The notes: generated by a model not told the origin, from the letters alone. Counted from the first letter of the stretch, positions 33,645 through 63,205 are shown. The stretch: 64,000 bases of DNA from a virus (IMGVR_UViG_3300032318_001123:2489-66488), one strand, 5' to 3'. A program made the numbers and translations.

Positions 33645-33645
33645 T

Positions 33646-34083
33646 ATGAAGTGGGATACACGATTCATCCAGTTAGCTAGACACGTAGCACAATGGAGCA
33701 AAGACCCCGGCACCCAATGCGGAGCAGTCATCGTTAGGCCAGACCGCACCATCGCCAGCATTGGTTTCAACGGACTACCTCGCGGTGTCGAAGACAGTCC
33801 CGAACGATTGCTAGACCGCGACAAAAAGCTGCAATATGTTGTACACGCAGAAACTAACGCAATACTTGCAGCGCACGAACAGCTTAAAGATTACGCTATC
33901 TATGTGTGGCCTTTCCAACCCTGTTGCCACTGTGCCGCTGCCATCATTCAATCTGGAATCAAAGAAGTATACTGCCCAAATGCTCCGGTTATTAGATGGA
34001 CAGAGTCCTTTGAGGTAGCTAGAAAAATGTTTTGCGAAGCCGATGTTTCCCTAAATCTATTAGATGATAATATACCCAACTAA
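33646..34083 (+). CDS. dCMP deaminase
   Basis: SKDP.TQ.GA, VHAE.NA, PCCHC. Confidence 0.9.
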   Translation: MKWDTRFIQLARHVAQWSKDPGTQCGAVIVRPDRTIASIGFNGLPRGVEDSPERLLDRDKKLQYVVHAETNAILAAHEQLKDYAIYVWPFQPCCHCAAAIIQSGIKEVYCPNAPVIRWTESFEVARKMFCEADVSLNLLDDNIPN

Positions 34084-35211: not shown

Positions 35212-35858
35212 GTAACTACCTAAATATAAACATACCCACATTCATGGCCTACCTTGACTATGGGTTCATGTTTAATGAGCAACCGGACATTAAACGCGAG
35301 CGTATGCTTGTCGAGGTGCTGGCCTTTACCAGCATACCGCAGCGATGTGGACTGTTCACCATCATGACGGAGTACGGCAGTCAGCACGCTCGCGTCCCAA
35401 TCCACTACCTACACGCCGAGAAGGAGGGCGGCACGGACTTCCCACTCGACTGGGTTCAGCTATGGGATTCACTGAGCTATTACTGCTCGGCTACCATTCT
35501 TGAGTACTGCAAGAACCGTTCGGCCAACATCATGCTCAAAAACAAGACGCTCCACAAAGCGCAGTACATGTTCACCCTTGACTGGTGCATGGGTCCCCAG
35601 TACTCCAGTGGCTATGGAGAGATGGCAGCAGGACACAAATGCGGTCACGTATTCCGTGGTTCGGGTGGGCAATACTTTATTCAACCCAACAACCGAGTCC
35701 TTTGGATGGACGGCGGATCGTTCATCTGTTCCAAGTTCCATAAAAAACCAGACTGGAAAGTATTCGGTCACGAGTTCTCCTGCGAAAGCAGCGGATCACG
35801 ATGGGTGAGCGAAAGCGAGGAAGACCTATGGTTCTACGAATTCAAGGAGCAATCCTAG
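35208..35858 (+). CDS. Conserved phage hypothetical protein
   Basis: YLN.NIP, RVPIH, HKCGH, QPNNRV motifs. Confidence 0.7.
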   Translation: MSNYLNINIPTFMAYLDYGFMFNEQPDIKRERMLVEVLAFTSIPQRCGLFTIMTEYGSQHARVPIHYLHAEKEGGTDFPLDWVQLWDSLSYYCSATILEYCKNRSANIMLKNKTLHKAQYMFTLDWCMGPQYSSGYGEMAAGHKCGHVFRGSGGQYFIQPNNRVLWMDGGSFICSKFHKKPDWKVFGHEFSCESSGSRWVSESEEDLWFYEFKEQS

Positions 35859-36100
35859 CGGCAGCACTTTGCGGGTGCGTATCTTCGTACCCTCCGCGCC
35901 CCTACCCTTGGAACTTTCCGCCCGTGGAAGAATGGAACGCCCCATTTGAGATGTCTTGGGTAAATTTTGTAGATACGGTCCGTAGGGTTACCGCACCCAA
36001 AGGGAAAATCTACGACTCACTAATGCGTAACTACCAACCCGATTTCAGCATACATGAACTACAGACACACAGAACCACAAAGACGAGCGGCCCTAATTAG
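35828..36100 (+). CDS. Putative Pro-rich lipoprotein
   Basis: Lipobox-like AALCG-C followed by YPPRPYPWNFPP. Confidence 0.45.
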   Translation: MVLRIQGAILAAALCGCVSSYPPRPYPWNFPPVEEWNAPFEMSWVNFVDTVRRVTAPKGKIYDSLMRNYQPDFSIHELQTHRTTKTSGPN

Positions 36101-39900: not shown

Positions 39901-42900
39901 ATAAAAATTAAATGTCCCCTGTACAAGTTTACCATCTTCACTAAGTTTTCCAGCATCGTTAACTTGAGCCAATGTACGCTCGGCCTTGGGAACTTCGACC
40001 TTCGCGATCCGTCTAGCGGCATTCTCGTCACTTTTCGGCAGTGCTTCCGCGATAGCGTATTTTATCTCGGTAAATCGTTTATCATTAATTACCACATATC
40101 CGTCTTGATCAATCAACCTACTTATAACGTTGCGGACAGCTGTAGCCGTATTGATTGCCCGTGTGCCCGTCTTTTTTCCTCCGCGACCGGGAAGTTTAAC
40201 TATGAATTGCTTAAGTTCTTCCCCACCTTTGTAGCTTTCAAAAATGTTACCAACAAGATCGGCGTACTCAGGAGGAGCTTCACGCAATTCGAGGTCACTC
40301 TCTGGATAGACAGACTCTCCGTAAGCCATAGAGTCTAGTTCCCTAACCCCATCGCGAAGGTTCTTGAGTTGCTCGCGTAACGCAGGGTTACGCAGAGTCA
40401 TAACGTGCGTTTCAAATCTACGCCATATAGTTTTAATACTAGCAAGAATGCGCGCCAATAGACTTTTCTGCACACCCCTCAACTCTACCATTTCTTGAAC
40501 GGATTCTCCGCGCTTCATGCGTTCAGCTAACATGGTCAGATATTCCATCGCCAAGTTGACTTGGCGATCCTCGGACAAAAACTCGTCGCGTGCGGCTAAC
40601 CTATCGGCCTCGCTGGCAAATATGACTTGGTTAAAGTAAAGGTCAGCAGCCAGTTCTTTCTGAGCTGTATTCAGACTTTTCCCTATCTCTTTCAACAGCT
40701 TCACACCGATCTTCCGTAGTAATCCAAGATGGAAGTATTCGTGCATTCCTGCCGCACGGATAAACGTAGCGGCCTGACTATCGTCCATGTTGCGTATAGC
40801 TTCGGCTATACGTTGTGGATTCACAAATAGTGTGCGGCTTAGAGCATCATTAATGTGCATGCGCCCCCTACCATCCGTGATAATTACTTCACGGATTCCG
40901 GGATAGTGCTTACTGATAACCTCTTTAACAATACGTAGGGCTCGACCGGACTCCTCGGTAGTGGCTGGATTTTCACTAGGAACTGCCGTTTCCGGATCAG
41001 CCGAGTAGTGGTTCTTTGACGCACCTTTTTCAAAAGCCGCTGTGGATGCAAGCGGATTCTTGTCTAGATCACGCAGGACAGACATCGTGAAGTTAGATAC
41101 TTCATCTTGTGAAAATCCCTTGAGTTTGCCATCTTTGGCCAGTTTACGGCGCAAAGTAAGCATTTCACGGGCATGTTGTTTGATGTAAGCCTCAGACCCA
41201 CGATTGAGTTCTGGGTCAGCTGAAATAAGTCGGGCATGGCGCAGCGTGGTCTGACGATACACAAGCTCGTCGTAGTCAAGCATGTTGCGGAGGTTGTCGC
41301 CTTTGGTTTTGGAAACACGCTTCGGTTTTTCAACCACCCCTAGGCTCGGTTCATCGATAGCTTCCTCTGCTGGCATGGCACCCTCAAAATCCTCCAGCAT
41401 GGTTGATATAGACGGTTTATCTCCGTATACCTTGAACCCATCTTTAAATGGTGCATCGAGAGACACAACCTGTGGGCGGTATCTCTGCCTATCCAACAGC
41501 TTTTGTATAGCTTGCGAGAAAGCTCTTCTGGGGGTCACGTTCCTACCGCCCTTGCGGAAAGACTCTGCATAAAGAATGCCCGCAATTTGAGTCACTCTTG
41601 AGTCATCAACATTGGCGTTAGTCTCCCATGTGTTAAAAAATTTTATGGCGTTTTCGATGAGTTTTACTTGATCCCCACTCAACGGTTTCTGCCTTGAGAC
41701 AACCTCGCTCTTTTCGTTTCTACTTACTCCATCAATGACATCGGCAATTTCAATCAACTCCTCGCGCAGCGGCTTGAAGTCGGTGTCCATAACTGTTTGC
41801 GCCTCTATGGCCGCATCCACCAGTTGACCCGGAGCAGTCACTCGTGTTCCGCCATTGATCGCCGACACGGCAGAAGTAACTTCTCCGGTATTCGGATCAA
41901 AAGTAATTCCCGGAGCCACTTTCTGACGCATGTCCTCTGGTACAACCAGTTTGCGCCCTTGATCCAATTGACGGGCTGTAGTTTCGCTGTCGTTTACAAA
42001 AACATCCTCAAACGACACGTTTAGATTACCAGATAAGTATTCGACAGCATCGAACAAAATACCCTCGGCACCATCGGCTTCTACGAATCGTGCGTAATCG
42101 AAAAGTTCACCTTCGGTAGACGGAGGCGCAACTAGTAACTCAGGATTAGGATCTGGAGAACTCGCCGTTAACGCAAACTCCATTACCTGCTGTCTTGTTT
42201 TATCAATTAATGTATTTAGTCGACTTTCAAGGTTAGCGGATTCTTTTTGGAGACTGCCGAGAAGTTCTTGAATTTCTTTTGTCTTAATTACTACACCGGG
42301 TCTACCTTCACCGGGCGCACCTTGCATAGGTTTGTTACCGTACTCCGTAACAGTTAACTCAGAAACCGGAATTACCCTTGTATCTGTTTTAGAAAATTCA
42401 ACTGGTACACCCAAATTTTTACCGCCAACTACAAGTGAGCGAGGAGGTAGGGGGAAAGGTTTAGCAATTACTACTCCAGACTCGCCCTTAGATGTTATAA
42501 CTTTACTGCCAGCCCAACGTAATCCTAACTCTCCTACTACGGTCGGGGATGTTTCTCTTTCGGAAAGAGAAAGCAGACGTTGACGAGTCTCTCGTATTTT
42601 CGCGTCTATTTCGTCTTTCTTTTCAATGAGACGCTGGATTTTCGGTAAACTCTTTGCAACTTTTTCGCTCATAGCAGCCGGGGCAACTGCTTCTGGACGT
42701 TCAATAACTAGCGTTCCAACAACATCCCCAATATCATCTTTTATCTCATACGATCCGTTCGGGAGAGTTGCTAGATAGGCGCGGACTTTAGTTCGATTGT
42801 TGAAGATGGTATCCTCAATCTCCTCTTGCGTAGTGTTTGGATCGGGAGATTCTAAAACTAGATCAGCTGCATTTGTCAGCGAGCCCGGACTTGTAACCGT

Positions 42901-45900
42901 TGTCGAGATGCGATTTGGAATGCGTAGCTCCCCGTCCAAGTCGGAAGTGAACTCAATGGTCTCAGGATTTGTGATACCGAGATCATTAGCCAGCTGGGTC
43001 TGCGCGTTCCGCTGAATAGACTTAAGCGTAACGATAAGCCCGGAAGTTTCTTTGTCCGGTCGGATCTGTGTTCTGGCTTCCTTGAGTTGTTTCTTCGTGC
43101 GCCCTATGTAGTTATAGAGTCGCTTGATAACAGTACCCATGGAAGGGACGGCCTGCGTTTTACGGGCCTGCTCATAGAGGGACGCTTCTTCTTTGGAATC
43201 CGGGATTACTTGAGTCGGGGCAGCGACTCCTTGCTGCAGATCCGTGTTCGCTTGGTCCATGACTTCACGAACAAAATTCTTGAGTGACTTACGACCATTC
43301 CACCCCTTGCCTTTCATGTCCGCTTCGATCTCATCGAAGGAACGGCGAATGGTGCGAACCCCAGAATCGCTAGCTTCTTTGACAAGGTTCTGGCGGTATT
43401 CGATCAGACCTCCGGGCATAACTCCCTCGGTTCTTTGTGGCGGTGTTATCTGTACCTGCGGACGCTCGCCTTCCGGTGCAGGGGCTAGCGGAAGTGTAGG
43501 TTCGGTTGTTGGGGTGGGGATTGTAGTTGATTTGGTGCGCGAAGTAATAGGAACTGACCCTATACCACCCCTTTCGGATGCTCGCTTGGCATACTCCCTA
43601 GCCTGCTCTTCCGTCTCAAAACTTTCATGTGTTAGTGACTCGCTACCTTGAAATATCGATACACGCCATTTCTTTTCTGGCTGACCCTGTGTAACAGCCC
43701 CAAGCTGTTCTGCTTCTGGGTCTGTAGTAGTTTCTCTTACCTGACCTTCTAAAGTATTCTTAGAAACAATAAATTTATTAGGACTTCCAGAAAGAAGCTC
43801 GCCAGTTTCCGGATCTCTTCTTTCGTAGGCAAAAGGAGCGGAAACTGTAGGAACTGCGGGAGTAATAGTAACCTGCGGACGCTCACCAGTCGGAGCCGGG
43901 GTCAGCGGCAAAGCAGCGGTGCGCTCCTCAAGCGGCCTCAACTCCGGAGTCTGCGCACGGGCGGTATTCCATGCTTCCTGCAAGTAATCTTTAATGCCAT
44001 CCCACATGTCGGGGAAGTCTTGTTGGACACGAGCCGACCAGTCGGAGAAGCGGACGATACCTTCCTTGGCATAGTTGACCGCGAGTTTAACAGCCAGAAA
44101 CGCCAACTCAGGATCGGCACCCATGGATGCCTGCCCAAGTTTACCGCGCATCTGAGAGCGAATATCCTCCCGTTCAGTTTTGAGTTCCTCCAGTCTGGCT
44201 AGACGTTGCTGCGCTTTCTTGAAAGCTTCGTCGGTTGTTGCAGCAGCTGGTTCGGTGATGGCGGGAGCCGCGCCTGTTTCCGTTACGCTCGGAGCCGGGG
44301 TCTGCGCTCTGCGCGTACGTTCAGCGTTAATCTGCTGGAGTGCGTTGTTAGCCTGTGCTATTTGAACTTCATCCGTAGCTGTCTCGGACTTCTGTTGTTG
44401 GATAGTCTCTTCCTGATCCAGTTCGTCTTCGGTAAGGGCTTGCAAGCCTGTTGGGGCTGGAGCAGTTGGAGCGGCAGGTGTAGTGGCGGGAGCGGGAAAA
44501 GCAGGTGTAGTGGCGGGTGCGGCAGGGGCAGGTGCTACACCCTCGGCAGCTTGGAACAAAGGTAACCCTGCAGCAGGGGTGAACGGTGTCAGAGTTTCGC
44601 CGCGTTGACGTTTCTCCATCAATACAGTCGGTAAAGTCTTACGACCAATATCACCCAATCCGTTTTCTGTAAGCCACCCCATCACTTGTTCTGGGTTTTG
44701 CACTTCGGAAAGGCTACGGGTTCCCTGAGGAACTACGTTGTTGTCTGCAAGGAGCTTTAGAACTCCAACAGCAGAATTGAGACCCATCTTCTCCTCAACA
44801 AATTTACGGAAAGTATCTTGTTTTGGTAGTCCAAAAGTAGCCTCGCGCTCCTGTTCGACCTGCTCCGGAGTACGTAGTAAAGCAGGCGATGGTGCAGCAG
44901 TAACAGGTGTGGGTGCTGCGGTAACGACTGGAACGGGGGTAGCAGCAACGGGAGCAACCGGGGCGGGAGTGGTGGTAGCGGGAGCGGGTGCTGCGGTAAC
45001 GACTGGAGCGGGGGCTGCGGCCTGTGCAGCCTGTTGCCTACGGAGATATTCGGCACGGGCGTTATCCAGAGCAAGTTGTAAAGATGCCCCGGATTGCGGG
45101 CTAATCTTTTGAGCCTCTACAATAAGAGTCCCTAACTCCTTGCCCTTGGCTACCAAGTCTTCGTCCGTGAGTTTCTGCAGAGCTTCGGGTTTATACTCAT
45201 CAGCCACCTCAATGACTGCAGCAGTCCCGGCAACGGTTGGCGAAGGTGTGACAGCAATCGGAGGTTTCTGCTCTTTGGCTGCGGCTTCTGTGGCGGCTTT
45301 TTCTTCTGCGGTTGGCTCAATAGTCAAAGCACGCAGACGTTCTTGATCGGTGCTCTCCGTCATAGACTTGACGGTAGTATCGCGCACAGCTTTAGCGGTC
45401 AGCGGTGCATTGTTTTCTTGGAGCGTTTGTTCAACTTTAAGCGTCTCAGAAATCTTCTTGTCCTCGACAGCCTTCGCCGCACCCATATTTGACGCTATCT
45501 TACCCTGTACGATTTGTAGACCGCCCGGAGCCGCTTCTCCCATGATTTCACCAAATACTGCTTTACCCTGTATAGGCTCCCCAGCAACCAAGGATCCTGC
45601 AACTTCCCCGCCACCACCCAAAGCAGCTTGTATCCCTAGTTCGGTAGTAGCCTCACGTGTCGGAGTCTTAACCGCCGCCTGTGCAACTCTGCCGAGTGGC
45701 GAGGTAACGGCTGCGCGCACTACAGATTTCTCCGGAGCTTTTAGTGCAGTCTCAACAATCTTCCCCACACGACCGCCAATTCCAGCAGAAACAGCCTCAA
45801 ACGCCGCGACAGGAATACCGTGCTCAAAAGCTTTAGTCTTGGCATCATCAACAAGTTTTTGATTCGAGAAGAACTGGACGATACTGTCCGGATTCTTCAT

Positions 45901-46563
45901 ATCCATCCCAGCATTTTGTAGTTCCTCCAGAACTTTGCTACCGTATTCAGTAGCTAAAGATCCAGCAAATGTTCCGGTGATTTGACCAGCAGTAAACCCA
46001 GCGGCAGTGCCTAAACCGGGAACTACTGAACCAACTCCAGCACCAGCTAGACCTGCCGTTGTACCAGCAGCCAACGCTGGAACGCTACCAGCCAAGCCTT
46101 CGGCAACGATATTCGTCGTTACTTCGATAGGATTTGTAGCAAATGCTTTAACCGCGTCCCACCCTTCGGCCTCTTGGTACGCCTTGTACCCCGGAGCAAG
46201 GTTACGAGCTTGCTTGTTGTATTCGAGTTTGGAGATTTCCTTGGCTTCGTCTGGAGTGACGCCACCAGTAACTGCCAAAGCTTGCTGCGAGGAATCCCAA
46301 GCATTAGCTGCTGAGTTTATGATACCCTCAATAGTCCCGACTTCTTTGGGGACGAGAGATGTGAACTCTTCATTTTTCTTGGCTACGAAACTCTGGAAGT
46401 TGTTGCGCGGCGTATCGTCGATAAATCCGCCGAAGGAGTTTCCGTATTCTTTAACTTTGGTTGCCCAGTTGTTGAATACTTGCTGTTTGACTTCGGGAGT
46501 CAGTTGTTGAAACCGATCGTCATTCTCAATCTCGCCCCATGGTTGAGGTTTTCGAATAGCCAT
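36919..46563 (-). CDS. Giant (3214 aa) internal virion / large polyvalent-type protein
   Basis: Gly/Ala membrane-like N-terminal segment, Pro/Ala/Thr linker, HEYFH zincin motif, helical C-terminus; last of an ascending-size gene series. Confidence 0.7.
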   Translation of the reverse strand: MAIRKPQPWGEIENDDRFQQLTPEVKQQVFNNWATKVKEYGNSFGGFIDDTPRNNFQSFVAKKNEEFTSLVPKEVGTIEGIINSAANAWDSSQQALAVTGGVTPDEAKEISKLEYNKQARNLAPGYKAYQEAEGWDAVKAFATNPIEVTTNIVAEGLAGSVPALAAGTTAGLAGAGVGSVVPGLGTAAGFTAGQITGTFAGSLATEYGSKVLEELQNAGMDMKNPDSIVQFFSNQKLVDDAKTKAFEHGIPVAAFEAVSAGIGGRVGKIVETALKAPEKSVVRAAVTSPLGRVAQAAVKTPTREATTELGIQAALGGGGEVAGSLVAGEPIQGKAVFGEIMGEAAPGGLQIVQGKIASNMGAAKAVEDKKISETLKVEQTLQENNAPLTAKAVRDTTVKSMTESTDQERLRALTIEPTAEEKAATEAAAKEQKPPIAVTPSPTVAGTAAVIEVADEYKPEALQKLTDEDLVAKGKELGTLIVEAQKISPQSGASLQLALDNARAEYLRRQQAAQAAAPAPVVTAAPAPATTTPAPVAPVAATPVPVVTAAPTPVTAAPSPALLRTPEQVEQEREATFGLPKQDTFRKFVEEKMGLNSAVGVLKLLADNNVVPQGTRSLSEVQNPEQVMGWLTENGLGDIGRKTLPTVLMEKRQRGETLTPFTPAAGLPLFQAAEGVAPAPAAPATTPAFPAPATTPAAPTAPAPTGLQALTEDELDQEETIQQQKSETATDEVQIAQANNALQQINAERTRRAQTPAPSVTETGAAPAITEPAAATTDEAFKKAQQRLARLEELKTEREDIRSQMRGKLGQASMGADPELAFLAVKLAVNYAKEGIVRFSDWSARVQQDFPDMWDGIKDYLQEAWNTARAQTPELRPLEERTAALPLTPAPTGERPQVTITPAVPTVSAPFAYERRDPETGELLSGSPNKFIVSKNTLEGQVRETTTDPEAEQLGAVTQGQPEKKWRVSIFQGSESLTHESFETEEQAREYAKRASERGGIGSVPITSRTKSTTIPTPTTEPTLPLAPAPEGERPQVQITPPQRTEGVMPGGLIEYRQNLVKEASDSGVRTIRRSFDEIEADMKGKGWNGRKSLKNFVREVMDQANTDLQQGVAAPTQVIPDSKEEASLYEQARKTQAVPSMGTVIKRLYNYIGRTKKQLKEARTQIRPDKETSGLIVTLKSIQRNAQTQLANDLGITNPETIEFTSDLDGELRIPNRISTTVTSPGSLTNAADLVLESPDPNTTQEEIEDTIFNNRTKVRAYLATLPNGSYEIKDDIGDVVGTLVIERPEAVAPAAMSEKVAKSLPKIQRLIEKKDEIDAKIRETRQRLLSLSERETSPTVVGELGLRWAGSKVITSKGESGVVIAKPFPLPPRSLVVGGKNLGVPVEFSKTDTRVIPVSELTVTEYGNKPMQGAPGEGRPGVVIKTKEIQELLGSLQKESANLESRLNTLIDKTRQQVMEFALTASSPDPNPELLVAPPSTEGELFDYARFVEADGAEGILFDAVEYLSGNLNVSFEDVFVNDSETTARQLDQGRKLVVPEDMRQKVAPGITFDPNTGEVTSAVSAINGGTRVTAPGQLVDAAIEAQTVMDTDFKPLREELIEIADVIDGVSRNEKSEVVSRQKPLSGDQVKLIENAIKFFNTWETNANVDDSRVTQIAGILYAESFRKGGRNVTPRRAFSQAIQKLLDRQRYRPQVVSLDAPFKDGFKVYGDKPSISTMLEDFEGAMPAEEAIDEPSLGVVEKPKRVSKTKGDNLRNMLDYDELVYRQTTLRHARLISADPELNRGSEAYIKQHAREMLTLRRKLAKDGKLKGFSQDEVSNFTMSVLRDLDKNPLASTAAFEKGASKNHYSADPETAVPSENPATTEESGRALRIVKEVISKHYPGIREVIITDGRGRMHINDALSRTLFVNPQRIAEAIRNMDDSQAATFIRAAGMHEYFHLGLLRKIGVKLLKEIGKSLNTAQKELAADLYFNQVIFASEADRLAARDEFLSEDRQVNLAMEYLTMLAERMKRGESVQEMVELRGVQKSLLARILASIKTIWRRFETHVMTLRNPALREQLKNLRDGVRELDSMAYGESVYPESDLELREAPPEYADLVGNIFESYKGGEELKQFIVKLPGRGGKKTGTRAINTATAVRNVISRLIDQDGYVVINDKRFTEIKYAIAEALPKSDENAARRIAKVEVPKAERTLAQVNDAGKLSEDGKLVQGTFNFYSYSPDTRIREGMLGGPEKGGLWSNLKAMFTGRYSETALKTGGLGSSGKFTPQQRDIQLRKKFKIAADLTKAEFLVKKYKRVLGKLYKKDTDIPTDILNTALGSTENKYTDDQFRQLKAAASDKDRAALVRQFMEENIKTAEARIADAQSKLPSELVSVIREMRDTIDSLGTKLLEGNYLTSKMKLVVEANRNVYLHRSYQIFDNPEWKRLFEKPEPGSEHERILNAADRLFRMKAQADIARDLRMEKKQYGIDMSIDDSLKAASAYKDDIALKAHNMLVDYLSVADDKENNLLLTGLLPGQRKLDIIKERGQIPKEIRELWGQIEDNETNFVKSVAKMSAFMAATDTGRELLDAGIKGGYIWKQGVSEGTEAPAGFRPIYPPGTVGEYNPLKEAYAPKDVRDAFRSLRDTTTVEGWAKWFSGLTAWTMAMKTVGNFPQGYIRNFLGNPLLILSGGFVSYTDPIRMMKNAKLAVRAALANTGLKFDEGVQALREEYVRNGVIGDNVESGLFKEMIQASMDQPGINSLWKDTKAQQKFKSLAKTSTGITKTVFDKAANIYQGIDDFWKVFAYEQEKKSQRNAHPDWSETQIQQEAANRVRNKLPTYSMSPELTRSIRRTPFIAPFITWTSEVLRTGANTIGIAAEDIRVGRETKNSAMQMNGYKALTGTLVSAALLPVAAATAKAIFGYDDDDDEAMRQFVPEYEKNDQLIYIGQREGGKATYLNLSYLDPQQMRAETAIAFFRALRGERGVGEAFMDAATQMIDPFASEQLFVGTIMDLARNRTAQGGPIWNEQDTPLNITATKLGYLANMLAPGVISGAGRRVYKAATGQVSKQAKSYDLSNELSGIFTGQRMGEVDAQTSLANKTRAFLANQSEAKQLLTSVLNSRGSVDLSDIPAAYDNAVFAHDKLYDDMIKAYSAAIRLGVPKPAAIRILSETLSDVDAASIVAGRIPRLRVSPITLETTLRNAPSIEEGKARRSIFLKTVQERNQQNK

Positions 46564-54366: not shown

Positions 54367-54897
54367 CTAGGACTTGTCGATTAGGACGTAGGGGATTTGT
54401 TTAACCCCTGCACGGTTCATCTCCATTTTCACGAGTTCGTAGAAGCCACTCCACTGCGATGGGGGTATCGTCTGACATCCGAGAGACGAGGTCGTAGAAT
54501 TCGATCCTTTGTGGATATTGATTCCAAACCATCCACTATCATCACCCTCTTTGTAACGAGAGACCGTAACTGGGGCAGCTTGAACCAATGCGGGATACTG
54601 GCGACTTTTTGCTTTGCTAACGTTGTGGATGCCGAGCTTGTATTGCCAGACTCCCGGTTTAAGGCGTGCTACATGCGGTTTAAGGATCGACGGGTCCGTG
54701 TTCGCATTGAACGGGTAGAAGCCATACTTCGAAATAAGGAAGATGGCATCGTCGTACACATTGATATTATTGCCGTGAGGGGCAAATGTATCGCTGTAGT
54801 ACCCGCGAACCCCGACCAAAGTAACCGGAGAATCCACGCCTTTCAGCATGGCTTCAGTTTCTTTTCGAGTCTGCTGCGGCTTAAACTTTGGGATCAT
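54367..54897 (-). CDS. Candidate endolysin with L,D-transpeptidase (YkuD)-like catalytic motif
   Basis: GINIHKG.......SLGCQ (His...Cys); start adjusted to ATGA overlap; holin-like genes nearby. Confidence 0.55.
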   Translation of the reverse strand: MIPKFKPQQTRKETEAMLKGVDSPVTLVGVRGYYSDTFAPHGNNINVYDDAIFLISKYGFYPFNANTDPSILKPHVARLKPGVWQYKLGIHNVSKAKSRQYPALVQAAPVTVSRYKEGDDSGWFGINIHKGSNSTTSSLGCQTIPPSQWSGFYELVKMEMNRAGVKQIPYVLIDKS

Positions 54898-56111
54898 TTG
54901 AATAGAGGGACTCGGAAAGAAGTATTGCTTCCGTTTGTAAAGACATTGACCTCCATCCAAGCAACAATGTTATTAAAGGCTGATCCAGCAGGGGTAGTGT
55001 TTGTACTAAACACCGCTGCTTGGAAGTTGGCATTGTTGGTGTTGGTGAGGGCTGGTAGGCCGAGTCTGAAGTTGGTTCTGCTAATTGCCCTATTCTCTTC
55101 AATATTTATATCGGCAAATCGTATTGGCTCGACAAATAATATATTATGGTAGAATGTCCACTGACCTGATTCACGAATAAACTTCACTGATTCCTCGGCG
55201 TTACTAATCGTAACAAAGTTAGTAGCGGTGCCAACCTGACGTACAGCCGTAACAGTGCTTGTCGAACCCCTGTGAGTAACTGTTGCGGAATCCCCGTCAA
55301 ATGTTGCAGAATTTGTTGGCAAAGCGATCACATTAGTCACCCCCGAAATACTGGGTAACATGGAGTAGACATAAAGATTACGGGCATTTGTACCGTAATT
55401 TGTAGAATTTGTAAGTGGATTGAATGTCTGAACCAGTGTTTGAATAGGTGCGGCTTGCCAAAAATTAGTCGGACTAACAACAGAACCATTAGTATTCACG
55501 GAAACAAGGCTGGTTCCAGCATTTGTATTTGTGAGTGCAGGCCAACCAAGGCCAAGATTGGCTCTCCAAGTCGTAGCATCATTTGCCGTTTCAAATGTGA
55601 GAAAACCAGCATCGGTTACTCTAAACTCTTGCGCTTTAACCGTTCCTCCTCCAGCAGAAACATAAGCGGTGTCGATACTGCCGAAAGTAACCCCTGTGTT
55701 TGTTTCCCCAAGCCCTATTGCTGTGCGAAATTTAGAAACGTTGGTATTAGTTAGTGCTGACAAACCGAGTTCAAGGTTTGTTCTAGCTATAGCTGCATTA
55801 GTAGCTCCCGTCCCTCCATTGATGATCGCGGTAGTGCCAATAATATTGGTAGCACGTAGGTTTGTCAGGTTTACTGCATTACTTGATGCAAGGTTGGAGA
55901 GGGTCAGAGAAGATGGTTGAAACGCGGAAGAAGCGTTGGTCGCGGCACTGCCTAGACCGAGACCCGTACGTCCCTGCGAAGCATTGGCCGTCCAAAAATT
56001 AGACGGATACGTAATAGTATAGTTGGACTTATTTACCATTACAGCGTTCTGTCCGTAAGCATTTATGGCTACCGACATTGCTGTAAACAAGATTGCTAGT
56101 TTTTTACACAT
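54894..56111 (-). CDS. Fibre-like protein with apparent Sec signal peptide
   Basis: MCKKLAILFTAMSVAINAYG|Q; three RTNL.LG..ALTNTN-type repeats; start overlaps upstream stop. Confidence 0.7.
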   Translation of the reverse strand: MCKKLAILFTAMSVAINAYGQNAVMVNKSNYTITYPSNFWTANASQGRTGLGLGSAATNASSAFQPSSLTLSNLASSNAVNLTNLRATNIIGTTAIINGGTGATNAAIARTNLELGLSALTNTNVSKFRTAIGLGETNTGVTFGSIDTAYVSAGGGTVKAQEFRVTDAGFLTFETANDATTWRANLGLGWPALTNTNAGTSLVSVNTNGSVVSPTNFWQAAPIQTLVQTFNPLTNSTNYGTNARNLYVYSMLPSISGVTNVIALPTNSATFDGDSATVTHRGSTSTVTAVRQVGTATNFVTISNAEESVKFIRESGQWTFYHNILFVEPIRFADINIEENRAISRTNFRLGLPALTNTNNANFQAAVFSTNTTPAGSAFNNIVAWMEVNVFTNGSNTSFRVPLFK

Positions 56112-56997
56112 CGACGAATTCATCTCCAAGCGCGAGTTGGTTATTTGGATTTCCTGACACACGCGCCTCATGCCAGTTTCCGGTTGTAATATTACGTAGT
56201 AACAGTCGACCTGTGGTCAGGTCAACCTTGTATCTATTTGAAGTCAAAGTAAATCCCACAGGGGGCGTATCTCCGAGAGATATGGTAGTTCCGTCAATGC
56301 CTCGTAGCAATACATTGACCCACACACCTGTATCGTCATTTTTAATCTGTAGAATCCCGTTATTGATGCGCACAAAATCATCTGACAATGAGGTAATCTC
56401 GTTGACGGGGCCGAGCACGGCATCGCCGAGAGAAAATGTAAAACTTCCGTCTTCCCCAGTGACAACAAGTTCTCTCCAATCATTGCCGTCGACATTACGG
56501 ACGAGAAGTCCGTTGTCGTAGGATACTCCGACATACAATCCCGCTAGATCCATATCGGTAACGCGGTATCCGCTATTGACCAATGTATAATTAAACTCAA
56601 CTTCTGTGATATAAGAGGAAGTACTGAGTTGAATGATTCCAAGAAAATCGGCTGACGGCAGGTCATTTCCCGGACCAGCGTCCAATTTCAGAGATTCTCG
56701 ATAAGTGGTACCTGTTACTGAAACCTGACCATCGTAAAAAACAACCCCGGACGAACTAAAACTCGGAACCCTTGAAAAACTGTTCAAAGACCACAATGCA
56801 GCCACATCCCTGCGGCGGGGTTTCTTGACTAGGAACTTGACTGCGGTATCCGTAACCCGCCCACCACCGCTGCGGTATACAGCCACACGCAGGGTATACT
56901 GATCGCCATACTTATCCGACCAAGTAGAGAAAGGCCGAGGATCGTCGATCCAGCGGCTGAGCTTTCCACTATCTAGGTCTATGGCTAGGCTTTTCAT
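56104..56997 (-). CDS. Virion appendage / adaptor-like protein with three C-terminal repeats
   Basis: Ig/BppU-like N-half; three G.L..RN.....W......G repeats. Confidence 0.55.
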   Translation of the reverse strand: MKSLAIDLDSGKLSRWIDDPRPFSTWSDKYGDQYTLRVAVYRSGGGRVTDTAVKFLVKKPRRRDVAALWSLNSFSRVPSFSSSGVVFYDGQVSVTGTTYRESLKLDAGPGNDLPSADFLGIIQLSTSSYITEVEFNYTLVNSGYRVTDMDLAGLYVGVSYDNGLLVRNVDGNDWRELVVTGEDGSFTFSLGDAVLGPVNEITSLSDDFVRINNGILQIKNDDTGVWVNVLLRGIDGTTISLGDTPPVGFTLTSNRYKVDLTTGRLLLRNITTGNWHEARVSGNPNNQLALGDEFVDV

Positions 56998-57088
56998 CGT
57001 CCTTGGGTTTTTCCTTTCGGGGTTTCTTACGTTTAATTTTTACTTCGCGAGGATACTCGTCTTCCTTGTACGGGTCAAACTTTGGCAT
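56969..57088 (-). CDS. 39-aa Lys-rich micro-protein
   Basis: MPKFDPYKEDEYPREVKIKRKKPRK...; fills the gap; not in track. Confidence 0.4.
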   Translation of the reverse strand: MPKFDPYKEDEYPREVKIKRKKPRKEKPKDDEKPSHRPR

Positions 57089-57089
57089 A

Positions 57090-57272
57090 CTAAAAATCCA
57101 CTTTTCCTTTCAGCATGATGCTTTTGATAGGCTTTTTCAGTGAACCTCCAAGTTTGATATCAAGTTTAATAGATGCCAGAAGACGAATCCACCAAGGACG
57201 CTTATCAAGGTGGTCATGGACAGGGTGCGGACGTGTGTTAAATATCGCATCCAGTCTGTCCTTCTCAGTCAT
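57090..57272 (-). CDS. Hypothetical protein
   Basis: Overlap-coupled; amphipathic PWWIRLLASI. Confidence 0.6.
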   Translation of the reverse strand: MTEKDRLDAIFNTRPHPVHDHLDKRPWWIRLLASIKLDIKLGGSLKKPIKSIMLKGKVDF

Positions 57273-57579
57273 TAACGGCTGGGATAGCCTTGCGCACTTC
57301 GGTGTAAGTCACGGGGCCGGGGATACCGTCCTGCGTAGCATTAACCAGAGCTTGGATCTTTTTAATCCCGTCAGTTTGGACGGTGTTGGTCAAGTAGTTC
57401 ACAGCGGCCATGATGCAGCTAACGACAAATCCGGTAACTGCTACCTGATCTACTTGGCTGGCTAGGCTAGAATCATACGAAGCGAGCTTGGCAATAGCGG
57501 CACCGACTGCCGTAGCAATAATAGGGGTCAAGATGCCCCCGGCTCGGGATACCAAGAATTTAAGTAGCGTATTTTTCAT
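57265..57579 (-). CDS. Two-TM membrane protein, holin-like
   Basis: Two hydrophobic segments; lysis-like cluster. Confidence 0.5.
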   Translation of the reverse strand: MKNTLLKFLVSRAGGILTPIIATAVGAAIAKLASYDSSLASQVDQVAVTGFVVSCIMAAVNYLTNTVQTDGIKKIQALVNATQDGIPGPVTYTEVRKAIPAVND

Positions 57580-57863
57580 TATTCCTCCAGTTTCAGTCTT
57601 TGCACAGCCGACTCAACGGTGAGACGGATAAGGCTCTCGGTTGCATTGATACCAAGTTCCGAAGCGGCCATGGTGAGATTTTTGATAGCCATATCGCGTT
57701 TCTGGGCTCCGGTTTTATCCAGATCGGACAAGCCTCGAACAATCTCAAGGGCGTACGGCAAAAGAGCGGCCATACCGGATGCGAATAACTGCTTGAGGAT
57801 TGGGAGGTAGAAGTTAAGCAACGCTGTGCTAATTCCTGTTAGTTTGGCTAGTAGTGTTTTCAT
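57579..57863 (-). CDS. Holin-like protein (LL-H-like)
   Basis: Hydrophobic N-half; KTG.QK...A ... LI...VE.AV..LK. Confidence 0.5.
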   Translation of the reverse strand: MKTLLAKLTGISTALLNFYLPILKQLFASGMAALLPYALEIVRGLSDLDKTGAQKRDMAIKNLTMAASELGINATESLIRLTVESAVQRLKLEE

Positions 57864-57865
57864 GG

Positions 57866-58078
57866 TTATTGGCTAAATACGTTTTTAAAGCTTGTAAGAA
57901 CTATGGTTACAACGGCACCCACCGCTGCCGAGAACCCGACTACATGGGATCGGTAGTTCTCCAAATTCTTGATCCTCTCATCGTGTTTTTCGAACAAAGA
58001 GCGAAACGAAGACTGGTTGTCCAAGACTATGTCTAGCTTGGTCTCCAGTCTTACTAGTCTCTCGATGTCTTCGTTCAT
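57866..58078 (-). CDS. Coiled coil + C-terminal TM protein (XhlA/holin-like)
   Basis: ERLVRLETKLD ... VVGFSAAVGAVVTIVL. Confidence 0.55.
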   Translation of the reverse strand: MNEDIERLVRLETKLDIVLDNQSSFRSLFEKHDERIKNLENYRSHVVGFSAAVGAVVTIVLTSFKNVFSQ

Positions 58079-58112
58079 TCTATTTAGAAGTTAAGTTTTA
58101 GTAACCCGTAAG

Positions 58113-58532
58113 TCAATTCTGAACAGCCTCTTCAAGAAGTGGTGTCTCTTCTGGAAGCGGAGTCAGCACCACACTATTGCCATTCCACGAGAATTCACGG
58201 GATGGGTTAATAATGGCGCGAGGGCCAGAGTCTTTTGCGGCATCCAGCGATTGATTCAGTGCCGTTGCAGTTGCGGCTTGGAGCGCGATCAAACCTGTTA
58301 CAGCTTCGGGGCCGAGATGGTTAAGCACTGCGGTGAGACGATCATCTGGCAAACTCCATACAGCGGCGTGTGCAGCGTTGAGGCTCTGCACAAGCAGTTG
58401 GCCATAGTAGGTGGTTCCGTTGGCTGCGCGGCTGATGTTCGACAAGTCTTGCTCAAGCTGCGTCTGTGGGACAAGTTGTGCGTTGACGGTTGGCGCGAGG
58501 GCCACGATTGCGAGGAGGATTAGTTTTTTCAT
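58113..58532 (-). CDS. Helical protein with apparent Sec signal peptide
   Basis: MKKLILLAIVALAPTVNA|Q; start adjusted to 58532, 5 nt after the fibre stop. Confidence 0.7.
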   Translation of the reverse strand: MKKLILLAIVALAPTVNAQLVPQTQLEQDLSNISRAANGTTYYGQLLVQSLNAAHAAVWSLPDDRLTAVLNHLGPEAVTGLIALQAATATALNQSLDAAKDSGPRAIINPSREFSWNGNSVVLTPLPEETPLLEEAVQN

Positions 58533-58537
58533 AGTTG

Positions 58538-60244
58538 TTACCAGTTTGTTAGTGAAGTGCGCCGCCATACGTTGTTGGAGACGCAAATGTAGAGGAAATT
58601 GTTGGTGTCGTAGCGCATATCGCCAGCCGTGCCAGTGTCGGTTGAATTGGTCGGTGCCGTGCCTTGTAATCGGTGCTGGGCGTCTATGACGCTGTAGGCC
58701 GAATCGTCCGCGAGGCGAACTTGCAACACGGTGTTGGTGCGTTTGAGGGCTGGGAAGTTGGTGGTCGTGCCGCCGAATTGAACCACCCCAGAAAACTCTG
58801 CGTTTGAGGCTCGAAGGCTCCCCGATGCATCTGTTGAGGTTCCGTTGCCAATCGCCAATACCCCCGATGCGGAACGCGACAAGCCCAAGTCAAAAACGGG
58901 GGCATTGTTTTGCACGGTTGCTCCAGCACCCCATCCAATTACCCCAACGGAAGCGCACCACTGTTTGCCAGCCCTCCAACTAAAATATGCGTTGGCTATG
59001 GAGGGCGTACCATTGTAAATCTCAAAGTCAGCATAAGCTATTCTTGCGCCGATAGACTGCAACCCTCCAAGACTAATTCCTACAATATTGTTGTTGCCGA
59101 CATTGCCGCCTACAATGAGTTGGGTTCCAAGAGTTCCAGTCGTTACCGTTGTTTGACCGTTTGTTGCAATGGTCATCCTCGTAGTCCCATCGGTCTGAAA
59201 CTCCAGCGCCCTCGCCGTGCCGCCGCCGCTTCCCTTCTCAGTTCCAATGGTCAGCACATTGTTTGTCCAAGCAATTCTTCCACGTTCATAATTCGTGGAG
59301 TTGGAGTAGGTGTTGTAAATGTTGTAGGTCTGGGGATTTGTGCCATTGCGGGATGCGAGCGTGTTTGTGGTATCGCGCAAAAGATAAGTATCACCAGTTA
59401 CAGGCTGTGTAGTTGAGTTTCCCCAAGCCAATAGAAAGTCCGAATTAAACATTAGGTTATTTCCAAAATAACGCATTTGAGGTTCAGTCCCATCGGTAAA
59501 TGTAAGTTCTCCTGCTGTTCTCTGATAGATGCCAACGGACGATCCAGTTAATACAAATGATGGATTTGTTGCCAAACCAGCACCTAATGTTAACTTTGGA
59601 AGTGTCGCCACAAACGCACTTCCACCAGCACCATCGGCAGTGAGTATGCTGTTGGTTGTAGCCGCTCCAGAGGGAACGCTGTTGTTAGTTGCAAGGGAGC
59701 CAAGGCCGATATCTGAACGAAAGTTTGTCACATTTGTATTGGTAAGCCAGCTTGCTCCAAGCCCAAGATTTGTCCTAGTCTGATTTGGAGATCCTCCAGA
59801 TACAAAACTTATAGAGTCGCCAGCACCTAATGTTATTGGCCCACTAAAACCTCCAGTTGTTGCTATTGCACTTCCAATTTGAAGTCGTGTTCCCGTGATA
59901 TCCGCAAAGGTTACATTTTGATTTGTTCCGAGTCCGATATCTGTTCGGAAGTTTGAAGCATTGGTATTGGTAAGAGCAAGCCAGCCAAGTCCAAGGTTAG
60001 TGCGCGTTACTGCAATATTCGTCAATGCTCCCGTAAAATAAATAGCCCCCTCTACCGTCAAGTTATCTGCACCCAGATCAACAGAAGTAGCTTGACCAGT
60101 AAAAATAACAGGATTAGTAAATGTGAGCGTGTTTGACCCAGAATACGCAACTTGCCCGTTGGTTGTGTTGTAGCCAAGGGTCTTGATCGTCTGCGAATAT
60201 GCAGCCGCAGTTGTTAGCAAAATGGCAATTAGATATTTAATCAT
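58538..60244 (-). CDS. Tail-fibre-like protein with apparent Sec signal peptide
   Basis: MIKYLIAILLTTAAAYS|Q; RTNLGLG repeats; C-terminal G..GDMRYD..FLYICV..N.WRR..L..W motif typical of phage fibres. Confidence 0.75.
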   Translation of the reverse strand: MIKYLIAILLTTAAAYSQTIKTLGYNTTNGQVAYSGSNTLTFTNPVIFTGQATSVDLGADNLTVEGAIYFTGALTNIAVTRTNLGLGWLALTNTNASNFRTDIGLGTNQNVTFADITGTRLQIGSAIATTGGFSGPITLGAGDSISFVSGGSPNQTRTNLGLGASWLTNTNVTNFRSDIGLGSLATNNSVPSGAATTNSILTADGAGGSAFVATLPKLTLGAGLATNPSFVLTGSSVGIYQRTAGELTFTDGTEPQMRYFGNNLMFNSDFLLAWGNSTTQPVTGDTYLLRDTTNTLASRNGTNPQTYNIYNTYSNSTNYERGRIAWTNNVLTIGTEKGSGGGTARALEFQTDGTTRMTIATNGQTTVTTGTLGTQLIVGGNVGNNNIVGISLGGLQSIGARIAYADFEIYNGTPSIANAYFSWRAGKQWCASVGVIGWGAGATVQNNAPVFDLGLSRSASGVLAIGNGTSTDASGSLRASNAEFSGVVQFGGTTTNFPALKRTNTVLQVRLADDSAYSVIDAQHRLQGTAPTNSTDTGTAGDMRYDTNNFLYICVSNNVWRRTSLTNW

Positions 60245-61209
60245 AGCTTTGTAGATGACAGATTCCCGTCATTATCAATAGTTATACGCCAACGCGAATT
60301 ATTAGGCGATTTTAAAATAACCCCTTTTGTGGCATCAGTTACTTCATAGTCGGTAGCCTGTTGAGTGAGGGCTAGTGTGCCTATGGCGTCTGCGGGGAAA
60401 TACAACTCGCTTCCGTTGATAGAAATTTTCTTTTCTTCAGCTTCTATAACTAAGCCAAATTCGGGAATGCTGATTCCACTTGGGCCGCTAATGACTAAGT
60501 GGCCTTGACCAGTTGAGTTGAGCACCCCAGAACCTAGGCCGCTGATGCGCCCATCGTTCCCTTCGCAAGCTGTGCCTGCCGTTGTTCCATAGGTGACTCC
60601 ACCAGTTCCCCACTCGGTATCGTAGCTGGTGTTAGTCTTTTTGCGGAGTACTTGACCAGTAGTTCCGCCTGCTGGAACTCCAGCAGCAGAACTTGCCTTG
60701 CCGTCCAATGCGGTCTGGGTTGCGGTGGAGACGGGTTTATTGGCGTCTGAAGTGTTATCTGCATTGCCAAGACCCACCATGGACTTGGTAATGCCTGATA
60801 CCGTCCCAGTAAATGTGGGCGAGGCCAGATTAGCCTTTAGATTTAAAGCCGTTTGAGTAGCTGTGGATACTGGTTTGTTCGTATCAGATGTATTGTCTAC
60901 ATTGCCCAGTCCAACTGTGGATTTTGTGATCGTGGTCCATTCTGGAGCAGTGGCTCCCGTATTTACCGTGAGAAACTGACCAGCGGTTCCGATAGCAAGC
61001 CTATCTGGAACGGTGGCGTTACGGTAAAGAATATCTCCTCGATTGGTCAGGGCAGATGTCCCCGTAGGCCCTTGGATCCCTTGAATTCCTTGGATTCCCT
61101 GCGTACCTTGGTCGGAAAAAACTACATCGTAGGAGATAAGTTGTGCCGCCACTGTACCATCAACGGTCAGTGTTTCATCATATGCTATCTCGTAAACTTT
61201 AAGGTTCAC
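60241..61209 (-). CDS. Tail fibre / decoration protein
   Basis: Short collagen-like QGIQGIQG; two VGLGN.DNTSD.NKPVSTATQTAL repeats; C-terminal ILKSP...RWRI.IDN.G.L; no signal peptide. Confidence 0.75.
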   Translation of the reverse strand: MNLKVYEIAYDETLTVDGTVAAQLISYDVVFSDQGTQGIQGIQGIQGPTGTSALTNRGDILYRNATVPDRLAIGTAGQFLTVNTGATAPEWTTITKSTVGLGNVDNTSDTNKPVSTATQTALNLKANLASPTFTGTVSGITKSMVGLGNADNTSDANKPVSTATQTALDGKASSAAGVPAGGTTGQVLRKKTNTSYDTEWGTGGVTYGTTAGTACEGNDGRISGLGSGVLNSTGQGHLVISGPSGISIPEFGLVIEAEEKKISINGSELYFPADAIGTLALTQQATDYEVTDATKGVILKSPNNSRWRITIDNDGNLSSTKL

Positions 61210-61559
61210 AGGGCTTTAGTCGGTACTGACACCAGATCAAAGGTTCCTGAGACAAGGGTTGTGCGTGTCCCAGAAGCGGATTTCACTTTTATCCCGCGAT
61301 AGTATTTGCCGGGAACATTGAGTTCGCTGGCAGAAATTGGGAGGGTTACCTCGCCCGTAGTGGGGGATGTCGGAGTGAAAGATTTGTGGATAAATGCCTC
61401 ATCATCATTCCACGACAAATCTTTGGTGATGGTTACCCAAAATGTCCATCCTGTAATATCTTTAGGATTCCCATCTGCATCAGACAGACGGACTACTGCA
61501 GCCCAATCGTCGCCGACTGGATGAACTACATTATCGACGATGTAAGGGTAGTCGGCCAC
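61206..61559 (-). CDS. BppU-N-like Ig-fold adaptor
   Basis: GDD....V.L.D.DG.P.DITG ... G.VTL.I ... G.YY ... L.SG.F. Confidence 0.55.
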   Translation of the reverse strand: MADYPYIVDNVVHPVGDDWAAVVRLSDADGNPKDITGWTFWVTITKDLSWNDDEAFIHKSFTPTSPTTGEVTLPISASELNVPGKYYRGIKVKSASGTRTTLVSGTFDLVSVPTKAL

Positions 61560-62029: not shown

Positions 62030-63205
62030 TTAGGAGCAGGTCACCAGCGAAGCGGAGGCAATGCCATTGCCGCAACGGGTGTGCATGATCGCATAACCCC
62101 ACTCAGGCCGAATCGGCTTGGATCCAGCCGAGAGGACACCACGGAAGTAACCGATCGTGCCATCAGGGTTCTGATCCTTGTCGCGAATGTTAAGCCATTT
62201 GAACTCGCCGCGATAAGAGACGGGATCAAACGAGGTGCTGCCACCGGGGCTCGTGATCGGGGCCGGGATGACCGAGTGGAAGACATCCTTGTGGAACACA
62301 ATGGAGACTTCGTACTGAGCCAGTTCGTAGGCCGGGTTGACGATCCACTCGGTATTACCGCCAGAGGTCGACTTCACATACGGAGGAATCTCCGTGTAAG
62401 TACCAGCAAGGTAGGAGTACCGGGGCATGAAATCATCGATGAGATGATAAAAGCCCTTGTAGGTACGCTCAACTCCGAGAGGAGCCAACAGATCGTTAGC
62501 CTTCGTGCTGTAGCGATAATCGTCGCGATCACCCGCAATATTGTGGATGAGATCATACGAGGTCTCGCTGGAGCAGATGAGACCAAACACCGGGGTGCCG
62601 TTCTCACGTCCGAGCGGTTCGTTACCCGCACCATCACGGATGAGGCGCATACGAACTTTGTCAAGAATCGGCTGAATCAACTTCGAGGTAGGCTCGGCAG
62701 CGGGGAAGCTGCTGGTGCCAGAGGTCATCGAAGCGTTAGCCAAGATCTTGTTGTTGGACAAGCGAAGATACTCGTCACGATACCGCGTCTGCCAAGCCCA
62801 CGAAGTATTTTCCGTAAGGATACGGAAGATATTGCTGAGTTGGTCTTTACGGCGGAACGAGAAACGAAGATCGTTAACGCAAATCGCAGGCGACTCAATC
62901 GCGCTCTGCTTGAGATTGTACGAAACGAGCTTGTTGTAGAACTTGACTTGAGTGGCCGAAGGCACACAAGTTCCACCACTCGCGTTGCTGTTGAAACCAA
63001 CAGATGACCACGTCAGACGGGCATCCGAGCTTTCGGGAAGCGAACGGGAGTAGGTCATAACCGAGATATCGGTGCCCATTTCGTCGGGCCACGTATCTTG
63101 AGTAACCAATTTCAACCACGGACTCGTGTTAAGAGTCTTTTTGTAAATGTCAGGCCCGATGCGTCCGCTTTCCGCAGCCAGCCAGCTATCAATAGTATAA
63201 GCCAT
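62030..63205 (-). CDS. Major capsid protein
   Basis: 391 aa; AGGAGG RBS; strongly biased codon usage; follows scaffold-like gene; flanked by structured leader and hairpin. Confidence 0.75.
   Translation of the reverse strand: MAYTIDSWLAAESGRIGPDIYKKTLNTSPWLKLVTQDTWPDEMGTDISVMTYSRSLPESSDARLTWSSVGFNSNASGGTCVPSATQVKFYNKLVSYNLKQSAIESPAICVNDLRFSFRRKDQLSNIFRILTENTSWAWQTRYRDEYLRLSNNKILANASMTSGTSSFPAAEPTSKLIQPILDKVRMRLIRDGAGNEPLGRENGTPVFGLICSSETSYDLIHNIAGDRDDYRYSTKANDLLAPLGVERTYKGFYHLIDDFMPRYSYLAGTYTEIPPYVKSTSGGNTEWIVNPAYELAQYEVSIVFHKDVFHSVIPAPITSPGGSTSFDPVSYRGEFKWLNIRDKDQNPDGTIGYFRGVLSAGSKPIRPEWGYAIMHTRCGNGIASASLVTCS

Follow-up and report, generated by a model that had tools for sequence, protein, structure and literature searches.

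The three genes considered here belong to the late operon of a virus represented by a 64-kb stretch of DNA (IMGVR_UViG_3300032318_001123:2489-66488, hereafter the window, with positions counted from its first nucleotide). Each encodes a protein that opens with a predicted Sec-type signal peptide, and two of the three are fibre-like. The window covers 64 kb of a 66,488-bp viral record that has direct terminal repeats and is rated complete; its G+C content is 50%. The late operon is single, long and on the minus strand: it begins with terL, a glycosyltransferase-like gene and the portal gene, and crosses the ends of the record into a scaffold-like gene and then the coat gene (62030-63205). The coat gene is followed, in order, by genes for a protein of 117 amino acids (aa), fibre A, proteins of 568 and 139 aa, a 70-aa membrane protein and a holin. 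Beyond the holin lie genes for a 104-aa membrane protein, a 297-aa protein, a 405-aa protein, a 176-aa protein of phrog_3000, a run of orphans and a giant protein of 3214 aa. In blastn and tblastn searches of 50,697 phage records, no cultured phage proved to be related, in DNA or in protein, by more than short motifs: the 568-aa protein is matched over its last 49 residues alone, in cyanomyoviruses, and the 405-aa protein has zero matches. The features on which the analysis centres are the following.

60241..61209, minus strand: proximal fibre A, 322 aa, leaderless; matches PHROG tail-fibre families down to E 4e-32
60194..60244, minus strand: leader of the 568-aa protein, MIKYLIAILLTTAAAYS then Q; read from the sequence, with an ATGA overlap with the fibre A stop
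58538..60244, minus strand: putative distal fibre B, 568 aa, with leader; 589 homologues and matches to its C-terminal motif
58113..58532, minus strand: putative small fibre partner, 139 aa, with leader; 94 family representatives, downstream of fibre genes
56052..56111, minus strand: leader of the 405-aa protein, MCKKLAILFTAMSVAINAYG then Q; read from the sequence and from 114 anchored homologues
54894..56111, minus strand: fibre C, 405 aa, with leader and fibre repeats; 366 homologues and a weak PHROG tail-fibre match (E 0.002)

The three N-termini read as a preliminary description of this DNA had quoted them, and the anatomy of the leaders, the Gln at +1 and the coupling of each gene to the one upstream were all verified. 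Each leader (that of the 139-aa protein is MKKLILLAIVALAPTVNA then Q) has a basic n-region with K or R within the first 4 residues and a hydrophobic h-region of 11-13 uncharged residues with a mean hydropathy of 2.4-2.8, which is shorter than a membrane span. The predicted cleavage sites read A-Y-S, V-N-A and A-Y-G, each directly before Gln, and none of the proteins has a lipobox Cys at +1. The (-3,-1) rule for signal-peptidase sites is well established. The starts are tightly placed: ATG 60244 overlaps the TGA of the fibre A gene (60241-61209) as ATGA, ATG 58532 sits 5 nt past the stop of the 568-aa gene, and ATG 56111 falls within the final 8 nt of the 297-aa gene (56104-56997). A simple n/h/c rule (n-region basic, core hydrophobic and free of charge, -3 and -1 residues small), run on 82 greedily chosen open reading frames (ORFs) of the window, flagged just these three proteins with Gln at +1. 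It additionally flagged a few ORFs that are probably non-coding and one lipoprotein-like ORF at 35801. The latter encodes 99 aa (35801-36100, plus strand), has an internal start, MVLRIQGAILAAALCGC, with a lipoprotein-like signal (L-C-G-C lipobox), and bears the sole further export-type N-terminus among the likely genes. The 568-aa and 405-aa proteins also have RTNLGLG..LTNTN repeats in common (BLASTP E 2e-12), in agreement with the preliminary description.

Conservation of the leader is most pronounced in the family of fibre C. Many of its 366 homologues lie on 65-70 kb contigs, and about 115 of the best 120 carry the leader; the few apparently leaderless sequences among these are fragments or have starts mis-called too far upstream or downstream. 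In 114 homologues anchored on a conserved P-x-N-F-W motif, Gln at +1, Gly, Ala or Ser at -1, and K or R in the n-region are each found in 114/114; position -3 is Gly, Ala, Val, Cys or Ser, and the core has a mean hydropathy of 2.8. Mean pairwise identity within the anchored set is 47% for the leader and 79% for the next 34 residues. Since the leader thus drifts in sequence yet keeps its properties, it appears to be selected as a signal peptide and not as a packed structural element. The mature protein has the N-terminal module QNAVMVNKSNYTITYPSNFW.., and the whole protein finds only weak matches in Pfam, PHROGs and NCBIfam. An equivalent gene pair is seen at locus L012, where a 298-aa protein precedes a leader-bearing 614-aa protein that is the orthologue of fibre C by position.

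The relatives of fibres A and B reveal such a leader in a second setting, inside a fused ORF, which the preliminary description had overlooked. Fibre A comprises a collagen-like GxQ run, two GLGNVDNTSD..KPVS repeats and a terminal module ..KSPNNSRWRITIDNDGNLSSTKL, while fibre B is built from its leader, an N-terminal module QTIKTLGYNTTNGQV.., the RTNLGLG..LTNTN repeats, a conserved central domain NPQTYNIYNTYSNSTNYERG.. and a fibre-type C-terminal motif. Of the 589 homologues of fibre B, the best 120 fall into three groups: 37 with a leader at the N-terminus and Gln at +1, 15 in which an internal leader joins a collagen-like fibre to the distal part, and a remainder that shares the distal domains only. 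The leader with its Gln is also present in P0002, P0009, P0030, P0040 and L100. The fused ORFs start with a collagen-like part (N-terminus MADTIEV.., GPQGPQG runs, a GQVLRK..DYDTEW motif) that ends in ..SPNGSRWR[IL]TIDNxGxL. Past this terminal module comes the internal leader, made up of R-T, a stretch of 11-13 hydrophobic residues and G-[SAT]-x-A; QVRDLVYGTNNVV.. and the distal domains follow it. At every internal leader the -3 residue is small, -1 is Ala and +1 is Gln ([SATG]-x-A before Q). When viral contigs were scanned with the terminal module as a pattern, the fibre stopped nine residues past the motif in 7 viral loci, where the next gene is leaderless; 7 further viral loci read through into an internal leader. 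An internal translation start ahead of the internal leader was considered and set aside, as the seven fused loci have no conserved ATG, GTG or TTG there. The fused forms are therefore taken to be single chains with an internal signal-like segment. L100 resembles the window: an ATGA overlap separates its two fibre parts, and the leader stands at the start of the second ORF. A further arrangement is seen in L013 (6160-8003), where a 76-aa mini-gene consisting solely of the terminal module has an ATGA overlap with a leader-bearing 538-aa fibre; the contig holds two leader-bearing fibres.

The preliminary description had ascribed a typical phage-fibre C-terminal motif to one of the large proteins. 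This was borne out for fibre B, whose last 49 residues match structural proteins of cyanomyoviruses and the C-terminus of gp086 of the Cellulophaga phage phi18:3 (E 5e-4). Otherwise the 568-aa protein belongs to no family in Pfam, PHROGs or NCBIfam, and sequence searches of the PDB gave no match. Its AlphaFold2 (AF2) monomer model is poor (pLDDT 58), with the best VIA fold matches, T7 gp17 among them, reaching Z 4.5 over 50 residues.

The family of the 139-aa protein has members with and without a leader. A full HMMER scan yielded 94 representatives of its family, about 75 of which are leaderless, start at the mature domain (MITKTQLEQD..) and have no membrane segment, while 13-14 have a leader and a short QLLP linker. 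Gln stands at +1 in 13/14 of the leader-bearing proteins and comes from the added linker, not from the ancestral domain. In a tree of 86 mature domains, the leader-bearing members form one group nested within leaderless ones (one change, support 87), which points to a single gain of the leader that was then retained over long branches. Because these proteins form one clade with one gain, co-variation of the leaders on fibre and partner was dropped as a statistical test. Among small-protein loci collected by motif scan and exact look-up, the leader on the small protein always occurs with a leader on the upstream fibre, be it N-terminal or internal, at every locus examined (the window, L003, L015, L022/L030, L023, L024, L041, L104 and L105). 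At seven others (L014, L016, L018, L019, L032, L038 and L039), the small protein is leaderless and the complete fibre has no hydrophobic segment. Such joint leaders fit two proteins that need one shared compartment. Homologues lacking the leader at the same place, which the preliminary description had named as evidence against its reading, do exist, inasmuch as most relatives of the small protein are leaderless; yet their partner fibres are leaderless likewise, so that this observation is not fatal.

The gene for the 139-aa protein invariably comes right after a fibre gene, and lysis genes are not nearby in every case. The protein has a three-helix body, a C-terminal beta hairpin and a WSLPDDRL motif (AF2 pLDDT 91, with the leader at low confidence); it has no fold match in the PDB, matches only uncharacterised phage proteins in BFVD, and belongs to no family in Pfam, PHROGs or NCBIfam. 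A role as a spanin was rejected: the absence of both leader and membrane segment from about 75 of 94 relatives would be intolerable for a spanin, the gene tracks fibres even where no lysis genes are nearby, and no embedded lipoprotein ORF was seen. The protein is probably an assembly factor or a tip-associated protein, and a partner of fibre B.

Taken as a set, the leaders with Gln at +1 on these fibre-like late proteins are of the Sec/signal-peptidase-I type, as first proposed, and are conserved, hence functional; their conservation across homologues excludes a chance origin. Judged by their sequences, we consider it very probable that the three proteins bear real Sec signal peptides, are cut by signal peptidase I before Gln and are exported. 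Their fate after export may be narrowed further. No type IX secretion system (T9SS) C-terminal domain is found in any of the three with Pfam and NCBIfam CTD models (E up to 1). With neither this domain nor a lipobox, the proteins should remain periplasmic until lysis, which speaks against the suggestion in the preliminary description that they are displayed on infected cells. Its other suggestion, that the proteins are perhaps glycosylated in the periplasm, gains no backing from the Bacteroidota O-glycosylation motif, which is not enriched: D[ST][AILVMT] sites number 3 versus 2.1 expected (p 0.36) and 2 versus 0.67 (p 0.13), with 0 in the small protein. As a few sites exist, some glycosylation might still take place.

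The host is probably a member of the Bacteroidota, to judge from the Gln at +1 in three unrelated families and the lack of a Shine-Dalgarno signal. Gln at +1 after the signal peptidase site is the Q-rule of Bacteroidetes (PMC5837995, PMC10653852), and the fact that the Gln of the small protein arrived with the added leader, rather than being part of the old domain, favours such a host. The regions upstream of 57 long ORFs are A-rich and G-poor and show no enrichment of Shine-Dalgarno motifs (9% vs 11% background). The best cellular matches of the phage rfbC are just 54% identical and come from mixed phyla, with many Bacteroidota among the matches. No real match was found in 301 genomes from the phylum of a "Bdellovibrionales" metagenome-assembled genome (MAG), these being genomes of ~1 Mb that may not be Bdellovibrionota proper; a scan of genome contigs with the fibre motifs found no relative, and the window has no tRNA genes.

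The closest parallel comes from phi18:3 (NC_021794, Pachyviridae), a cultured short-tailed Cellulophaga phage with a Bacteroidota host. Directly upstream of its lysis genes it has three consecutive large late proteins, gp085, gp086 and gp087, each with a Sec-type leader followed by Gln (..FGYS, ..GVSA and ..GLNA, each before Q), as in the window. These are annotated as virion or tail proteins from tandem mass spectrometry (MS/MS); the phage of the window is uncultured. Apart from the resemblance of the C-terminus of gp086 to that of fibre B, there is no detectable sequence similarity between the two sets, and the phi18:3 record makes no comment on the leaders, nor did the literature search turn up a paper that discusses them.

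These observations can be brought together in a single scheme. The two large proteins would be distal host-recognition modules of the fibres. Fibres B and C and the 139-aa partner would cross the inner membrane via Sec, be cut before Gln and fold in the periplasm, while the cytoplasm would be the place where capsid, tail and proximal fibre A, which has no leader, are made. Once the holin opens the inner membrane, the two pools would mix and the particle could take up its distal fibres, with the terminal module of fibre A as the probable docking site of fibre B. In the fused relatives, the chain would insert N-in/C-out, and a host peptidase would cut it into a cytoplasmic and a periplasmic part. 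Tailed-phage assembly is wholly cytoplasmic in textbook accounts, and in the classical complementation experiments with T4, particles without fibres combine with free ones in lysates in vitro. The link to the virion is drawn from the in-frame fusion to the N-terminal parts of collagen-like fibres, from the C-terminal motif that fibre B has in common with cyanophage structural proteins, from the lack of any other recognisable fibre and from gp085-087 of phi18:3. We place the chances that the exported proteins end up on the virion at even or a little above, and we regard the entire scheme, from export of the distal fibres and their partner through periplasmic folding to docking at lysis, as somewhat better than an even proposition. 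A bolder version, in which the particle is assembled in two compartments and the fused ORF is a polyprotein whose distal half is threaded through SecYEG by the internal signal peptide, cut by the host signal peptidase and matured in the periplasm, along with its co-exported partner, under a pyroglutamate cap, so that particles would be armed and infectious only from the holin-induced merger onwards, is tentative, and we do not think it likely.

Internal signal peptides are known from the polyproteins of eukaryotic viruses, namely at the flavivirus C-prM and hepatitis C virus core-E1 junctions. The fused relatives would be analogous, with one ORF that holds a cytoplasmic virion part, an internal signal peptide with its site and an exported part; unlike these polyproteins, the window's own genes are split and not fused, and the cleavage in phages is a prediction. 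Among phages, host Sec is used by spanins, SAR (signal-arrest-release) endolysins, T5 Llp and the coat proteins of filamentous phages. Their roles are in lysis, exclusion or the coat and, to our knowledge, none of them is a tailed-phage fibre. Cellular counterparts are seen in the mosaic adhesive trimer (MAT) fibres of Bdellovibrio bacteriovorus, which have a signal peptide, a conserved N-terminal domain (~130 aa), a mosaic shaft and variable tips, and which are phage-tail-fibre-like trimers that are Sec-exported and fold outside the cytoplasm (PMC10769870). However, MAT fibres are cellular proteins that a predator displays on itself and are not encoded in a phage virion operon, and many of them end in an S74 chaperone-protease domain, of which Pfam finds none in the window proteins. 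A PDB sequence search finds no relation to MAT fibres, whose N-domain is without a solved structure. In phages of Porphyromonas gingivalis, proteins with signal peptidase I leaders that expose Gln have been read as an adaptation to Bacteroidota secretion (PMC10367356); these are genes of unknown function in temperate phages, are not fibre-like and have no tie to a virion fibre. A full-text literature search found no description of signal peptides on tailed-phage fibres. The claim of an undescribed system holds insofar as no describing paper was found, and is qualified by the leader-bearing proteins of phi18:3, annotated as virion proteins from MS/MS, which were already in the public record. 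What the window contributes is the series of split and fused forms with the internal leader, a partner protein of the fibre whose family gained its leader once, and an instance in which the glycosylation motif is not enriched.

The most serious alternative to docking on the virion is that the proteins are exported and stay free, acting as binders or enzymes that cover or strip away the receptor on infected cells and their debris, or that loosen the outer layers at lysis. As free binders they would provide superinfection exclusion and protect the progeny; T5 Llp achieves a comparable exclusion. The leaders do imply action outside the cytoplasm, the genes flank the holins and a candidate wall hydrolase, and the virion membership of the proteins of this phage is something that we infer from indirect evidence. 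Moreover, the Q-rule proteins of Porphyromonas phages have been proposed to alter the host envelope (PMC10367356). On the other hand, in many relatives the exported module continues, in frame, a virion fibre of the classical collagen-like kind, the small partner tracks the fibre and not the lysis genes, and the comparable leader-bearing proteins of phi18:3 are annotated in virions by MS/MS. The late operon has no other recognisable fibre-like candidate for receptor binding. A periplasmic protein also cannot reach a surface receptor without a further signal, such as the T9SS domain or lipobox that these proteins lack. For these reasons we consider free binders rather unlikely.

A different possibility leaves the fibres wholly cytoplasmic and treats the hydrophobic segment as an uncleaved anchor or a structural element, such as a buried trimer core or a membrane-inserting peptide. 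The fused class lends itself to this explanation, with the segment internal, 100-500 residues from the N-terminus, and no start codon ahead of it; virion proteins with membrane-like segments do exist, among them tape-measure and ejection proteins. Yet the core, at 11-13 residues, agrees in length with a signal peptide and is shorter than a membrane span. In three unrelated families, and in the internal copies as well, K or R always comes ahead of this core, and a helix breaker, the small -3 and -1 residues and Gln come after it. Its sequence drifts while its properties are kept, where a packed core would conserve sequence, and a like leader has been added to a small helical protein whose relatives have none. 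An uncleaved segment is accordingly quite improbable. That the leaders are artefacts of wrong starts or chance hydrophobic N-termini is scarcely credible: longer upstream starts are available for two of the ORFs (TTG 58586 and ATG 56171), but these extensions overlap the upstream genes by 49-68 nt, the homologues begin at the MK.. position, and the leaders are conserved in hundreds of sequences.

Several considerations nevertheless weigh against export followed by docking at lysis. Many leaderless fibres of other phages contain the distal domains of fibre B, which can therefore do without the periplasm in folding; export would be a lineage trait. A periplasmic pool would meet the particles only briefly, around lysis, and in the fused form a hydrophobic tail would stay on the proximal fibre after cleavage, lodged in the membrane, which looks costly. 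The annotation of phi18:3 is silent on whether the leaders are absent from the virion peptides. The gain of the leader on the small partner is a single event, and its co-occurrence with that of the fibre is no statistical test. Finally, no prophage copy was found in 401 genomes of Bacteroidota (the phylum of a Bacteroidetes MAG), and this, together with the mixed phyla of the best rfbC matches, keeps the assignment to a Bacteroidota host tentative.

The neighbourhood of the leader-bearing genes includes a lysis cluster, in which a Pfam holin (PF09682) at 57579-57863 lies between leader-bearing genes, as the preliminary description had surmised. Its members and the genes adjoining fibre C are listed here.

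57866..58078, minus strand: protein of 70 aa, coiled coil plus a membrane segment at the C-terminus, opening the lysis cluster; read from the sequence, its position being kept in L012 and L106
57579..57863, minus strand: holin, 94 aa; Pfam PF09682 (E 7e-8) and PHROG holin families
57265..57579, minus strand: 104-aa membrane protein, a possible second holin or antiholin; hydrophobic segments, adjoining the holin in L012 too, no family match
56104..56997, minus strand: 297-aa protein whose end overlaps the start of fibre C; no family match (Pfam, PHROGs)
54367..54897, minus strand: 176-aa candidate cell-wall hydrolase; phrog_3000 (E 4e-18, function unknown), its ATG 54897 overlapping the fibre C stop (ATGA)

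The 176-aa protein is a candidate endolysin on the strength of an H-x-G ... S-L-G-C motif, spotted by eye, that recalls YkuD-type cysteine transpeptidases/peptidases. Its gene probably starts at ATG 54897, with the ATGA overlap, rather than at TTG 54960; the DNA of the gene has a 72% match to Bdellovibrio phage phi1422, and in L012 a 178-aa orthologue comes after the leader-bearing fibre. A protein of 70-73 aa directly before the holin recurs in the window (57866-58078, minus strand), L012 (8063-8278) and L106 (841-1062). It combines a coiled coil with one membrane segment, placed at the C-terminus in the window but at the N-terminus in L106 and L003. Fibre genes with or without leaders are also adjoined by a small phrog_1084 protein of 117-122 aa (function unknown), with copies in the window (61206-61559, minus strand), L003 (7365-7727), L013 (32-394 and 2747-3115) and L004 (11388-11753); this protein may be an adaptor.

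Further along the late operon, the 3214-aa protein (36919-46563, minus strand) has long Ala/Pro/Thr-rich linkers and an HEYFH motif. Its counterpart in L012 has 3230 aa, and L012 also encodes a 5852-aa protein with Zeta_toxin, AAA_34, helicase and Sigma70_r2 matches. On the plus strand, a sugar-modification island (30263-35858) encodes, by Pfam, two Methyltransf_24 proteins, DUF6492, DUF5672, a dCMP deaminase and RfbC (E 4e-66), along with three ORFs without a Pfam match.

Should export of host-recognition fibres, with their addition at lysis, prove to be routine, the presence of a signal peptide would cease to speak against a role in the virion. Particles would be unarmed until the holin fires, and Sec, signal peptidase I and glutaminyl cyclase would become dependency factors of the phage. 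With the fused forms, phage polyproteins that a host signal peptidase processes would be seen for the first time. On the practical side, recombinant receptor-binding proteins of Bacteroidota phages would need periplasmic expression. The availability of phi18:3 as a cultured Cellulophaga phage allows a direct test of the idea.

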